From contig CAWJZV010000023.1 in NCBI GenBank assembly GCA_963847445.1, positions 64,001-128,000 of the forward strand: a stretch of 64,000 nt of DNA, in the 5' to 3' direction. Every line of letters begins with the position of its first letter. Positions within the stretch are counted from its first letter, which is position 1. This document shows, piece after piece, positions 949 through 51,210 of this stretch. Origin of the DNA: an uncultured delta proteobacterium (GTDB lineage Bacteria; Desulfobacterota; Binatia; UBA9968). Below the pieces are notes generated by a model. It made no database searches. It saw only the letters and a list, made by a program, of their open reading frames with translations, and was not told where the DNA came from. The position numbers and the translations under genes are program-made.

Positions 949-1320
949 CTAGCGCAGCTCCCAGGCAATCCACTGGGAAATAGTTTTTTACCACAAAAAA
1001 CTAGCGCGACGCAGCCGCAAGCGAAACTCGGATTATCTCCTGCAAAGTAATTCATGTACCAATCGGTACAACACAGCAAATGAAAATGAGCTGCGCCACG
1101 TTCAAAGCAACGACGGAAAATCCCCCAGTGGCCCCCTTTGCCAAAGGGGGCGGGCCGAAGGACCGGGGGATTTTTGCCTCTAGTCGGCATTTTCATAAGA
1201 GGCGCAAAGGCCGCAAAGGCCGGCAAAAATGGTGAAGATAGTTTGTAGTATTATCTATCTTTACCCTCCGAACTTGGCGTGCTTTGCGCCTTGGTGGGAG
1301 GAATATCCGTGTCCGAGAAT
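949..1320. repeat. Composite nested intergenic repeat (CTAGCGC heads, 9-mer hairpin, 154-bp insert)
   Basis: CTAGCGC at 949 and 1001; GCAAAG/GCGCAAAG/GCCGCAAAG arm pairs with CTTGGCGTGCTTTGCGCCTT near 1273-1292. Confidence 0.75.
1048..1201 (+). mobile_element. 154-bp non-autonomous element (MITE-like), copy 1
   Basis: Identical by eye to 37350-37503; internal ATGAAAATG...CATTTTCAT inverted repeat; inserted at GCAAAG^G. Confidence 0.8.
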
Positions 1321-24587: not shown

Positions 24588-24600
24588 GATTCCGATTCAG

Positions 24601-24676
24601 CACGAAGACACGAAGGACACGAAGGTTTCGGAGGTTCGAAATTCCGAACTTCGTGAGCTTCGTGTCTTCGTGGTGA
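24601..24676. repeat. 9-mer periodic hairpin, empty form, between convergent genes
   Basis: CACGAAGACACGAAGGACACGAAG...CTTCGTGAGCTTCGTGTCTTCGTGGTG. Confidence 0.85.
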
Positions 24677-24700
24677 AGGTTTCGATACACCGCTACTGGA

Positions 24701-25407: not shown

Positions 25408-25795
25408 CACGACGAAGGGCCTAGCGCAGCACAGCCGCAAGCGAATGGGAAAGAGCTTTTCACCACGAAGTGTCGATGATCTCACGCTCGCCTACAGAGC
25501 ATGAAAATGGTTGGCATTCCCAGAACATGCTCCCCTCCTCGATTCGTCATTCCCGCGCACGCGGGAATCCAGGTTTGTTTTGCGCCGAATTAGCATGGAT
25601 ACCCGCTTTCGCGGGTATGACGGAGCCCCGCAGGCTCTTCGTTGTGCATATCATCCCCTCACAGGTATTTCCGAAGGAGGACACGAAGATCACGAAGGAA
25701 GAGACTTAACTTCCGAACCTTCGTGTCCTTCGTGCCTTCGTGGTGAGCTATCCTTTGCGAGTTTTGCGCCCTTTGCGGTGAACTCTCCGATTCCG
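25408..25795. repeat. Composite nested repeat containing a 209-bp insert (25471-25679)
   Basis: CTAGCGC head at 25421; CACCACGAAG^GACACGAAG host interrupted by an element with ATGAAAATG near its left end and a GTCATTCCCGCG..GGGAATCCA / TGGATACCCGC..GGGTATGAC cargo. Confidence 0.75.
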
Positions 25796-35553: not shown

Positions 35554-37332
35554 ATGCGGCGTGAAACTGACAAGCGAAAATCAGCCGATGTGGACGCCTT
35601 CACGGCGGAGGTGATCCGCAGTTCAGTGGTGGCGATCACCGATGAGATGAAGACCAATCTCATGCGCACCGCCTACAATATGATCATCTACGAGGCGGAG
35701 GATTTTACCGTCGGGCTGTTCGACGCCGACGGCAACACGATCTCCATCGGTCTCGGGCTGCCGATGTTCATTCGCGGCCTGTCGGATGCGATCAAGGCCA
35801 AGCTCGCGCATTGGGGCAAGGAAAATATTCATCCAGGCGATATTTTGCTGACCAACGATCCCCAGGTGATGGGCAGCCACTTGAACCACATGATCTTCTC
35901 GCTGCCGATCTTTCACGACGGCGCGCTGATCGCTTTCTCTTCGTCCATGGGCCATTGGCAGGACGTCGGCGGCGTGCTCGGCGCGGTGACCCGGGATATT
36001 TTTTCCGAGGGGTTGCAGATGCCCTTCGTGAAAATCTTCAAAGCCGGCAAGCAAGATATGGAGCTGACGGAGATCATTCGCAGCAATTGCCGCCTGCCGC
36101 ACTTCGCCATGGGCGACTTTCGCGCCCAGATCGCCGCGATCCGCACCGGCGAGCGGCGGTTGACCCGGCTGATCGAGCGCTACGGCGCTGCGACGTTTAA
36201 GCAGAGCATCGAGCTGATCTTCGATCAAAGCGAAAAACTCGCGCGCGCCGCGGTGGAGAAAATTCCCGACGGCGTCTATGTCGCTGAATCGTTCATGGAC
36301 GACGACGGCGTCAACATCGGCAAGCCTATCCCGATTAAAATTCGCCTCGAAGTAAAAGCCGACGAGATGACCGTCGACCTGAGCGGTGTCAGCCCGCAGG
36401 TGGCTGGGCCGTACAATTCCGGCGCCACCGCGGGGCGTTCCGCTTCGGAAGTGGCTTTCAAATTCCTCACCACGCCGTTGCTGCTGCCGATCAATGAAGG
36501 TTCGTTTCGGCCATTGAAAATCAATTTGCCGCCGGGCCGGGTGGTCAGCGCGACCAAACCGGCGCCGGTGCGCACCTGGATGACCGTGCCGATGACCGTT
36601 GCTGACACGATCTTCAAAGCCTTGGCGCAAGCCTGTCCCGATAACGTCCTAGCCGGTCATCACGCCGACCTAGCCGCGCCGCGCACCTTCGGTCTCGATC
36701 CCAAGAGCGGCCGTTCGTTTCATTTCCCGCCGATGCTGTCAGGCGGCGGTTGGGGCGCGCTGTCCGACACCGACGGCCAGAACGCGACCTTCTGTATCAA
36801 CGACGGCGACACCCATAACACACCGGTGGAAGCGGGCGAGGGGCGCGCGCCGATCTTTGTTTCCTACCGCAAGCTGCGCCAGGACTCGGGCGGGCCGGGA
36901 AAGTTTCGCGGCGGTCTCGGTGTGTCGCAGGAAGTGCGTTTGCTCTCGGCGGGCAGCGTCTTGTCGGCGATGGAGCGGGCGCTCTGTCCGCCCTGGGGAC
37001 TGTATGGCGGCCAGGACGCGCTGGCCAATCGCTTTACCGTCGTTCGCAAAGACGGCGCAGTCGAGCCCATGAAGACCGGCAAGACTCCCGGCATCATTGC
37101 TTTGCAGGAGGGCGACGGTTTTTTGATCGAAGTCGGCGGCGGCGGCGGCTTTTGGAACGCAATGGAACGCAATCCCGCGCGCGTGCTCGCCGACGTGCGC
37201 TCAGGCTATGTATCCGTCGCAGCGGCGCGCGCTGACTATGGCGTGGCGATACGGCAATCGGGTCGTAAATTCGAGTTGGATGTGGCGGCCACAGCGGAGT
37301 TGCGGAGTGGCCGGCGAGGGGAGAAGAGTTAG
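35554..37332 (+). CDS. Hydantoinase B / 5-oxoprolinase family subunit
   Basis: RTAYNMIIYE, PGDILLTNDP..GSHLN, HWQDVGG, NTPVE, DSGGPGKFRGGLG, GGGGGF. Confidence 0.92.
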   Translation: MRRETDKRKSADVDAFTAEVIRSSVVAITDEMKTNLMRTAYNMIIYEAEDFTVGLFDADGNTISIGLGLPMFIRGLSDAIKAKLAHWGKENIHPGDILLTNDPQVMGSHLNHMIFSLPIFHDGALIAFSSSMGHWQDVGGVLGAVTRDIFSEGLQMPFVKIFKAGKQDMELTEIIRSNCRLPHFAMGDFRAQIAAIRTGERRLTRLIERYGAATFKQSIELIFDQSEKLARAAVEKIPDGVYVAESFMDDDGVNIGKPIPIKIRLEVKADEMTVDLSGVSPQVAGPYNSGATAGRSASEVAFKFLTTPLLLPINEGSFRPLKINLPPGRVVSATKPAPVRTWMTVPMTVADTIFKALAQACPDNVLAGHHADLAAPRTFGLDPKSGRSFHFPPMLSGGGWGALSDTDGQNATFCINDGDTHNTPVEAGEGRAPIFVSYRKLRQDSGGPGKFRGGLGVSQEVRLLSAGSVLSAMERALCPPWGLYGGQDALANRFTVVRKDGAVEPMKTGKTPGIIALQEGDGFLIEVGGGGGFWNAMERNPARVLADVRSGYVSVAAARADYGVAIRQSGRKFELDVAATAELRSGRRGEKS

Positions 37333-37349
37333 CCGCAAAGAACGCAAAG

Positions 37350-37503
37350 TAATTCATGTACCAATCGGTACAACACAGCAAATGAAAATGAGCTGCGCCA
37401 CGTTCAAAGCAACGACGGAAAATCCCCCAGTGGCCCCCTTTGCCAAAGGGGGCGGGCCGAAGGACCGGGGGATTTTTGCCTCTAGTCGGCATTTTCATAA
37501 GAG
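37350..37503 (+). mobile_element. 154-bp non-autonomous element (MITE-like), copy 2
   Basis: Identical by eye to 1048-1201; inserted at AACGCAAAG^GGCGCAAAA. Confidence 0.8.
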
Positions 37504-41984: not shown

Positions 41985-42335
41985 CACCACGAAGGCCTAG
42001 CGCTGCGAAGCCGCAACCGAAAAGAAGAATGGCCGCAAAGAACGCAAAAAGCGCAAAAAGAATCGGCAGTCGTAGGGGCGGGTTTGTAACCCGCCCTCTT
42101 GGCTTTGGCGCATCGAGAGATTTGCGCAAGCCGCGCAAATTATCACGGATAGTAGTACGAAGGACACGAAGGTTTCGTAGGGTGCGCTGCACGCACCAGT
42201 CAGTCTCGGATTTTCTCTCGCAAAGGCGCAAAGACGCTAAGGTCGGAAAGTCATGGCGAAGAATTTCTCCAAGATAATTAATCTCTCCCCTCCGAACTTT
42301 GCGAGCTTAGCGCCTTTGCGAGAGGACTCCGAGTT
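41985..42335. repeat. Composite: 160-bp CTAGCGC element (41997-42156) inside a 9-mer host, plus a second CGCAAAG hairpin
   Basis: Removing 41997-42156 restores CACCACGAAGGCACGAAGGACACGAAGG, the exact reverse complement of 25718-25745. Confidence 0.8.
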
Positions 42336-43401: not shown

Positions 43402-43563
43402 ATCTAAATGAAGAATCGGATTATCTCCCGCAAAGGCGCAAAGACGCAAAGTTCGGAATGCATTCGTAGGGGCGTATTGCATACGCCCTTGTTCGAAGCG
43501 CGGTGATGAAAAGGTTTTTGTTAGACAGTTTCGGCTAGGTACGACATATCGGAGGATTGCACC

Positions 43564-48017: not shown

Positions 48018-48150
48018 TGGAAATATCTCCACGCAAAGGCGCAAAGACGCCAAGTTCGGAAGGAAGAGACGAATTAGCTTGGAGAATTTTTTCGCCGTTA
48101 TTATTCCGACCTTTGCGGCTCTTCGCGTCTTTGCGAGGGATAATCCGAGT
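48018..48150. repeat. 9-mer periodic hairpin (CGCAAAG type), empty form
   Basis: CGCAAAGGCGCAAAGACGCCAAGTTCGGAA...TTCCGACCTTTGCGGCTCTTCGCGTCTTTGCG. Confidence 0.8.
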
Positions 48151-50777: not shown

Positions 50778-51210
50778 CACCGCGAAAGCCTAGCGCGACG
50801 AAGCGACAATCGAAAAGAAGAATGGCCGCAAAGAACGCAAAGGTCGCAAAAAAGAATCCGGGTGTAGGGGCGGGTTCAAACCCGCCTCTTGGCTTTCCCA
50901 GACTTCGCTGGAGAAAAGAGGTTCGCCTGTCGGCGAACAGCTGCAATCAAAACTCGGTATATCTCTCGCAAAGGCGCTAAGCTCACTAAGGTGACGGGCG
51001 ATGCCCGTCATCCCGAGGAAACACCAGGGATCTAAGATAGATTTCTCCCAAGGGTCGAAATGACAACAATTCCGAACTTGGCGTCTTTGCGTCTTGGTGA
51101 GAGGAATTTCCGAATCCGAGAATTTTCGACTCCCGGAATATTAAAGCCGCATGCTATGACAAACATGTTGGGGTTAGTTTTTGGATAGAAATGCGCAGTA
51201 CACGAAGTTT
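50778..51210. repeat. Composite nested repeat (CTAGCGC element with internal CGCAAAG hairpin and GTCATCCCG..ATGAC unit)
   Basis: 50790 onward aligns with 41997 onward; GGATAG...TACACGAAG tail near 51183-51207. Confidence 0.7.

Follow-up and report, generated by a model that had tools for sequence, protein, structure and literature searches.

The 154-bp repeat e154 and the related 209-bp element e209 are very probably miniature, non-autonomous derivatives of two sister insertion sequences (IS) of the IS110 family, whose DEDD recombinase is guided by a bridge RNA. Both lie in a 64,000-nt stretch of DNA, hereafter the window, which corresponds to C23:64001-128000 of a MAG of 7.19 Mb (48 contigs, 91.8% complete). 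The sequences at 1048-1201 and 37350-37503 of the window are identical over all 154 bp, as the original prediction had it, and the two copies still agree over the 6 nt before them (GCAAAG) and the 1 nt after them (G). Each parent is an element of about 1.5 kb made up of a left end, a putative guide-RNA leader of about 200 nt, a recombinase gene for 411-421 aa and a right end that is short. The miniature elements retain 41 nt on the left and 13 nt on the right, in each case the interval between the tip and the subterminal repeat of that side, the interior having been swapped for unrelated hairpin or REP-like cargo. The parts of the first e154 copy, together with the second copy, are as follows.

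1041-1047, + strand: left target of e154 copy 1, TGCAAAG; its final AG is the shared core, and GCAAAG is the putative guide segment in the leader of the e154-type IS
1048-1201, + strand: e154 copy 1, a probable mini IS110-type element with a left end of 41 nt, a cargo and a right end of 13 nt
1056-1069, + strand: left-end hairpin GTACC-AATC-GGTAC, predicted by folding
1080-1088, + strand: left arm of the subterminal inverted repeat, ATGAAAATG, the final conserved bases of the e154 left end
1089-1187, + strand: e154 cargo, a nested G+C-rich hairpin with A and T runs on its sides, unrelated to the parent IS
1188-1196, + strand: right arm of the subterminal inverted repeat, CATTTTCAT, which pairs with ATGAAAATG
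1189-1201, + strand: e154 right end, ATTTTCATAAGAG, 13/13 identical to the parent IS; it is overlapped by the right inverted-repeat arm, after which come the tip CATAAG and the core AG
1202-1219, + strand: right target of e154 copy 1, GCGCAAAGGCCGCAAAGG, the following 9-mers of the host array
37350-37503, + strand: e154 copy 2, 17 nt past the stop codon of ORF 35554-37332

The e154 sequence context reads CGCAAAG/GCGCAAAG. A blastn search of the whole genome finds eight e154 copies on seven contigs, with identities of 100% (three copies), 99.4% (three), 98.1% (one) and 94.7% (one). GCAAAG, the register noticed earlier for both window copies, directly precedes all eight (as CGCAAAG in seven and TGCAAAG in one), and NCGCAAA follows six of the eight. 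Neither terminus (TAATTCATG.., ..CATAAGAG) is an inverted repeat of the other, and the only sequence common to both junctions is the 2-nt core. The terminal inverted repeats and target-site duplication of a classical MITE are thus both lacking. The original prediction had also reported no terminal inverted repeats, and this stands for the termini themselves, although it missed the subterminal pair formed by ATGAAAATG and CATTTTCAT. The core AG is found at the end of both the left flank and the element in 8/8 e154 copies, in most e209 copies and in full-length elements, and CATAAG is the 6-nt tip of the e154 right end that is matched by a guide.

The third element of the window has another target.

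25461-25470, + strand: left target of the e209-type copy, CACCACGAAG
25471-25679, + strand: e209-type mini element with the same frame as e154 and a REP-A doublet as cargo, sitting after CACCACGAAG

The end architecture previously noticed in this element is present, and it can be written as a frame common to e154 and e209: T..TCATG, a hairpin with a 4-nt loop, ..ACAG..ATGAAAATG, cargo, ATTTTC, 6 nt, AG. The hairpin stem differs between the two (GTACC/GGTAC in e154, GAGC/GCTC in e209, where it reads GAGC-TTAC-GCTC). Still other stems occupy this position across the IS110 clade, and single-sequence folds draw the hairpin in 11 of 16 elements. BLAST finds 37 full-length e209 copies in the genome, 25471-25679 included, at 67-93% identity. 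With nhmmer, end profiles detect 94 left ends and 63 right ends genome-wide, and in 61 cases a left end is followed by a right end at a distance of 190-278 bp. Among the 90 left ends with E<=0.01, CACGAAG precedes 64 and CGCAAAG precedes 7. Conversely, the genome holds 303 CACCACGAAG sites, and the next base is T, as in left ends, in 72 of them (48 by a stricter left-end pattern). The cargo was supposed to be swappable and does differ between copies of one frame: the same 90 left ends are followed by a REP-like hairpin doublet (56), a second REP-like palindrome (8) or other sequences (19), and the e154 frame carries still other cargo in other genomes. The e209 cargo, a doublet of inverted REP-like hairpins, is also found alone at many places.

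An IS200/IS605-type palindrome-associated mini element was suspected first, because conservation is much stronger in the left flank than in the right one. Mini elements of that kind are small and non-coding, make no target duplication, carry subterminal hairpins and lie beside a fixed left-hand sequence. Here they would have moved as single-stranded DNA through a Y1 HUH transposase, inserting 3' of a short target without duplicating it. The subterminal hairpins and the missing duplication agree with such an origin, as do four Y1_Tnp matches in the genome, two of which are intact genes of 275-307 aa.

G000:C2:49258-50181, + strand: intact Y1_Tnp gene, 307 aa, without mini-element ends on its flanks
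G000:C7:137856-138683, - strand: intact Y1_Tnp gene, 275 aa, without mini-element ends on its flanks

When the end profiles were run against 64 transposase loci taken from the genus, however, the left-end profile matched three, all of them IS110 (L075 in G009, L091 in G024 and L076 in the unpublished G005), and none of the scanned Y1_Tnp loci. The right-end profile gave one match (E 2e-4) at the edge of a Y1-transposase locus, L046. No TnpB (PF07282) rises above the cut-off in 31 genomes of the genus, the exact mini-element ends flank IS110 recombinase genes, and the asymmetry of the flanks would fit one long and one short bridge-RNA guide. An IS200/IS605 origin is in consequence extremely improbable: the ends of such mini elements belong to Y1 HUH or TnpB elements, whereas those of e154 and e209 belong to IS110. 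Mobilisation by an IS200/IS605 or RAYT enzyme was rejected on the same grounds, the Y1_Tnp genes being without matching ends and TnpB being missing from the 31 genomes. REPs or REPINs moved by a RAYT resemble the e209 cargo, with its inverted hairpin doublet, and RAYT-like Y1 genes are present in the genome; REPINs would explain this cargo, and perhaps the host arrays, but not the conserved frame or the insertion site. The 275- and 307-aa Y1 genes exceed the classic IS200 TnpA-sized ORFs of sister genomes (145-176 aa). A Y1_Tnp match occurs in 27 of the 31 genus genomes, with long Y1 genes in many, and these long genes are candidates for moving the REP-like cargo families.

The IS110 parents are seen as full-length elements in related genomes, the e209 type in G009, G024 and public MAGs, the e154 type in G055 with a partial copy in G009. 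The original prediction had suggested looking for longer copies with the same ends enclosing an ORF, and 1.5-kb IS110 elements of this description were found, flanked by the same target and with the same AG core. The IS110-like 2-nt core (AG, or CT on the other strand) that had been surmised from the window is therefore that of actual IS110 elements. The e209-type elements of G009 and of eight public MAG loci read CACCACGAAG^TGATTCATGATCTTACGCTCGCC..ATGAAAATGG, leader, tnp gene, ..AAATTTTCGAAGGAG^NNCACGAAG. The one in G009 measures 1,537 bp and consists of TTTTCACCACGAAG^TGTGTCATGAGCTTACGCTCGTCCACAGAAGATGAAAATGG, a leader of about 200 nt, a 421-aa ORF and ..CCAAATTTTCGAAGGAG^GACACGAAG. The ends of 25471-25679 match these elements, both in G009 and at the public loci. 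Ten more loci encode proteins 76-83% identical to the e209-type recombinase, and eight of them have the same ends and target; most come from public MAGs labelled Candidatus Binatia or "delta proteobacterium", and two records are titled otherwise. The e209-type protein (L075, 421 aa) scores 113 bits against Pfam DEDD_Tnp_IS110 (PF01548) and 67 bits against Transposase_20 (PF02371), these two Pfam scores being for the e209 type only. Both recombinase types match NCBIfam NF033542, "IS110 family RNA-guided transposase", at 289 and 287 bits for a cut-off of 140.

The e154 parent is a paralogue, with 51% protein identity to the e209-type recombinase, a length of 1,492 bp and a 411-aa ORF. G055 carries two copies, which read ATATCTCGCGCAAAG^TAATTCATGTACCAATCGGTACAACACGGCGGATGAAAATGG, leader, ORF, ..TGACTGTATTTTCATAAGAG^GCGCAAAGG in one and ^ACGCAAAAT in the other, following the pattern CGCAAAG^TAATTCATGTACCAATCGGTACAACACGGCGGATGAAAATGG..tnp..TGTATTTTCATAAGAG^(G/A)CGCAAA. 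In G009, which belongs to the genus of the window, a partial e154-type IS lies at a contig start, is 90% identical and has the same right end. Compared with the e154-type IS of G055, e154 is homologous over nt 1-41 (38/41) and the last 13 nt (13/13) only, and these shared stretches run exactly from the tips to the subterminal repeats. The cargo has nothing in common with the parent above chance 8-mers. In the parents, the left end measures about 240-250 nt (245 nt in L105, about 240 in the e154 type) and the right end extends about 25-35 nt beyond the stop codon. The parents have neither terminal inverted repeats nor target duplication, and a 2-nt core is common to the target and one end. They belong to a widespread IS110 clade represented here by loci L105-L138 and L198, from Binatia, Chloroflexota, Bacillota and Planctomycetota. 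Across this clade ATGAAAAYG is kept, and CATG is invariant among the first bases of the left end.

The leaders of the parents contain two segments, one equal to the left flank plus AG and the other to the right-end tip plus AG, and both change with the target and the end from one type to the other. In the e209 type, CACGAAG+TG reproduces the left flank with its AG core and then the two bases that open the element, while CGAAGGAG, which follows a conserved GCACG, reproduces the tip of the right end together with AG. The e154-type leader carries GCAAAG+TA and CATAAGAG in the corresponding positions. A Dehalococcoidia relative (57% protein identity) with an AT core has TTCGGAAT+AT and GTAGCAAT in its leader. 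Folding the leaders, singly by MFE or jointly with RNAalifold (MAFFT alignment, 19 leaders), recovered the two-loop structure only in part and without a clean consensus, and anchored segment comparisons were used instead. The first segment matches its own left junction over 8-10 nt in 17 of 20 clade elements, and the second its own right end over 7-9 nt in 14 of 20, one of the misses (L198) being an extraction error; non-cognate pairs in this 20-element comparison match over 4.4 nt on average. A stem-loop just before the second segment folds in all 16 elements, with a conserved TGTCGC/GCACG base and an upper stem that varies with compensating changes. By these comparisons the segments co-vary strongly with target and end, as would be expected of bridge-RNA guides.

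A possible guide for the right flank is clean in the e154 type only. There, TTTGCGTCT stands on the 5' side of a small hairpin located ahead of the first segment and is the reverse complement of AG+ACGCAAA; it matches the right flank of one G055 site at 9/9 positions and fits 6 of 8 right flanks in the source genome at >=6/7. In nine other elements this segment is partial or offset by one base in seven, and absent in L129; L125, also in the comparison, is without an identifiable right junction. A reverse-complement search of the leader found no segment complementary to the first left-end bases. When Rfam was searched with the full IS locus, leader included, nothing was returned at E<=1.

As far as the available text of the two IS621 papers goes (PMC11208160, PMC11208158), the parents resemble IS621 in their recombinase (DEDD + Tnp), in a long non-coding left end and a short right end, in the 2-nt core, in the lack of inverted termini and of duplication, and in the use of a host repeat as target. 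The guide segments, putative ones in the present parents, match flank plus core and end plus core in both, and two extra "handshake" bases follow a guide. In the same text, the target-binding loop of IS621 is laid out as guide, stem-loop, guide and handshake bases. Along the recombinase gene, the core is AG here and CT in IS621, and for the guide order to agree, the opposite strand of the site has to be read. On that strand, with a CT core, the leader would present a guide, a stem-loop, and a guide with two handshake bases, which we infer to be the layout of the IS621 target-binding loop. Also different from that account, no guide was found here for the first left-end bases. Relative to the IS110 group in the parts of PMC11208160 at hand, the end lengths of the parents fit, and the subterminal repeat is 6-9 bp here compared with 2-3 bp there.

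A model for the movement of the miniature elements can be proposed. The bridge RNA of a full-length element would read both the target and the joined ends, and the recombinase would recombine these ends with a host 9-mer repeat, exchanging strands at the AG core. The e154 type would insert at ..GCAA-AG-NCGCAAA and the e209 type at ..CACGA-AG-NNCAC.., leaving AG at both junctions and no target duplication. Since everything between the ends has been replaced, the miniature elements carry the donor sequences that the parent reads, without guide loops or enzyme. Because both loops and the enzyme are missing, they would depend in trans on the parent of their own type, the e154-type IS in the case of e154 and the e209-type IS in that of e209. 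The leader would be made as a bridge RNA, circles would form, and mobilisation would take place in trans. For IS621, the accessible part of one paper reports that a donor of 22 bp is enough if the bridge RNA is provided in trans (PMC11208160); in partial texts, excision by the recombinase-RNA complex is reported (PMC13626964), and excision is said to rely on recognition of the donor arm (bioRxiv 10.64898/2026.08.31.748434). A scan for a sigma-70-like consensus at a natural right-end/left-end junction found no junction promoter.

Neither parent is found in the source assembly. For both recombinase types, tblastn gives no hits at E<=1e-3 and a genome search no matches, so that the enzyme would come from outside the window, as had been supposed. 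Pairing left and right ends to look for an autonomous copy in the source genome yields short pairs and only two long ones, neither of which is autonomous: one of 987 bp is a mini element with a group-II-intron-like insert, and one of 5,289 bp is made up of two unrelated copies. At G000:C11:1-990, an e209-type mini element is split right after the REP stem-loop by an insert of about 760 bp, which starts with GTGCG, ends with a domain-V-like hairpin and ..CTAT, and resembles an ORF-less group II intron. What remains of a parent is a single decayed relic.

G000:C24:185457-185567, - strand: relic of an e209-type IS, 111 bp, 78% identical, covering the left end and the opening 116 nt of the leader

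The relic, which has CCACAGAG as its left flank, is cut just ahead of the first guide segment. Since the MAG is 91.8% complete and IS present in many copies are often missed by assembly, the absence of the parents may reflect an assembly gap.

The same absence of recombinase and leader, apart from one decayed relic, could also mean that the repeats are fossil frames, spread in the past, immobile now, and multiplied or homogenised by recombination or gene conversion among host repeats. The e209 copies, at 67-93% identity, are old, and 30 of the 94 left ends have no recognisable right end within 6 kb, though several of the 30 belong to e154-type or REP-B-cargo copies with right ends that the profile does not score. 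Against this, the assembly is incomplete, and three e154 copies are identical and three others one change apart, on different contigs with unrelated flanks; the near-identity of these six argues for a recent movement of e154. Both window copies are also missing from orthologous sites in sister species whose flanking genes are 80-93% identical, which answers the earlier call for empty loci. The site of copy 2 is without e154 in G044, G003, G004 and G021, and the BLAST alignments of the flanking gene end at window position 37349 in three of these four. In G044 the empty site is an uninterrupted array, ..TTAGCCGCACAATACGCAGAG|GGCGCAAGG... For copy 1, the array is uninterrupted in G003 (CTGCAAAG-GGCGCAAAG), and G022 is without the entire repeat region. 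In public runs, contigs about 97% identical to the gene flanking copy 2 match up to 37349, break off there or go on with other 9-mers, and do not contain copy 2. One such contig (X7) omits exactly 154 bp (37347 to 37502), with 24 nt on one side and 90% likeness, too weak to count. Fossil frames are therefore an improbable explanation, and mobilisation in trans by an IS110 parent remains preferred.

The targets are hairpin-forming intergenic elements, whose arms are tandem 9-mers (NNCACGAAG or NCGCAAAGG, with variants) faced by mirror-image 9-mers. These arrays often begin at or just past a stop codon and behave like a host repeat of the REP/BIME type. A module, CTAGCGCGGCACAGCCGCAACCNAAA, often stands ahead of them, and hence ahead of many mini-element left flanks. 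In the window, these features are at the following positions.

24600-24680, 25680-25750, 42210-42330, 43420-43460, 48030-48140 and 50820-50860: host 9-mer hairpin arrays
1001-1028, 25421-25445, about 42003-42025 and about 50796-50820: module CTAGCGCGGCACAGCCGCAACCNAAA

The uninterrupted hosts that the original prediction had pointed to, at about 42030-42060 and at 50820-50860, read as it described them. Its wider idea of a non-autonomous family aimed at repeats is supported.

Copies located just past stop codons, within hairpin arrays, could suggest that e154 is a host-selected RNA or terminator module, such as a structured 3'-UTR element, rather than selfish DNA, and the e154 cargo does fold well (z-score -3.97). 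The cargo, however, is not conserved between copies of one frame, what is conserved coincides exactly with insertion-sequence ends, and no Rfam family reaches its gathering score on e154. Such a host role is thus very improbable next to that of a miniature IS110 derivative. At gathering score, the Rfam scan of the window returns a tRNA gene only (350-423, - strand, RF00005, 61.5 bits), which lies 625 bp upstream of e154 copy 1. A scan for promoters found none in 950-1350, and the two terminator-like hits there fall outside e154.

The original prediction did not recognise a described element here. The kind is nevertheless on record: gene-less elements derived from IS110 are known from MITEPpu9 of ISPpu9, as set out in the accessible text of PMC12288879. 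ISPpu9 is an IS110-family element of P. putida KT2440 that recombines at AG, targets REP/BIME and is accompanied by this MITE-like hitch-hiker (same partial source). Like e154, MITEPpu9 is there a gene-less module between copies of the IS ends (A'/B' boxes), with AG recombination and a parent that targets palindromic REP/BIME; its cargo (ssr9) is unrelated to transposition, a short N4-loop palindrome lies near its left end, and it is presumed to rely on the IS recombinase in trans (PMC12288879, in the part available). In the same way, e154 has the ends of its parent (38/41 left, 13/13 right) with no recombinase gene between them in 154 bp, as well as the target and core of the parent, several copies and empty sites. 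The two systems are likened by element features, and they differ in several respects. From what is available of that source, MITEPpu9 has eight copies, five of them attached to the IS, whereas here there are about 90 free-standing left ends in an assembly without the IS. Several cargo types occur here (a hairpin, two REP-like doublets and others), as do two sister families in which target and donor have been re-set, and the host is an uncultured member of the Binatia. Elsewhere, ISNme5_IS110 is among the ISfinder entries resembling MITEs in the portion of PMC11602168 available. The literature available in part on IS110 MITEs or non-autonomous elements, and on IS110 in Binatia, does not describe the present elements, and the predicted bridge RNAs of PMC11208160 may already cover the clade.

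In annotation, the e154 and e209 repeats are not to be read as new RNA genes or as a new transposon class. If the proposed derivation is right, an abundant intergenic repeat family of uncultured soil Binatia would consist of hitch-hikers of bridge-RNA recombinases, and the two parents would be natural, closely related systems in which the guides for target and donor were re-set jointly. The miniature elements would also mark the cis sequences that survive the loss of guide RNA and enzyme (41 left-end and 13 right-end nt), a lead for minimal donors in this recombinase clade.

As to why 41 nt are kept on the left, the leader contains, about 100-140 nt further downstream and just 5' of the conserved stem-loop, a same-sense repeat of the variable bases that separate the left-end hairpin from ATGAAAATG. 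This repeat is 10 nt long in L129 and L137, 9 in L125, 8 in L115, L120 and L127, and 7 in the e154-type IS. Summed over 17 cognate pairs, the longest common stretch comes to 114, compared with 78.2 +/- 6.2 after shuffling, and none of 5,000 shuffles reaches 114, but several rows are mis-extracted and relatives are not independent, which makes this statistic a lead and not a result. A search for a complementary partner common to the left-end and leader repeats found none. The repeat may account for the retention of 41 nt. It is conceivable, though on balance unlikely, that recognition of the donor extends over about 40 nt of the left end in this clade rather than being confined to the tip, so that the miniature elements (41 + 13 nt) would be natural minimal donors revealing a third programmable contact. 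If this were true, such a contact may hold both ends together for excision.

Full and miniature elements are also found side by side. At L107:2740-2790, the right end of a full IS is directly followed by the left end of a mini element, a natural head-to-tail junction, and in the Dehalococcoidia loci L115 and L118 the right end of a full IS is directly followed by another full copy. These head-to-tail junctions recall the modular ISPpu9-MITEPpu9 arrangement.
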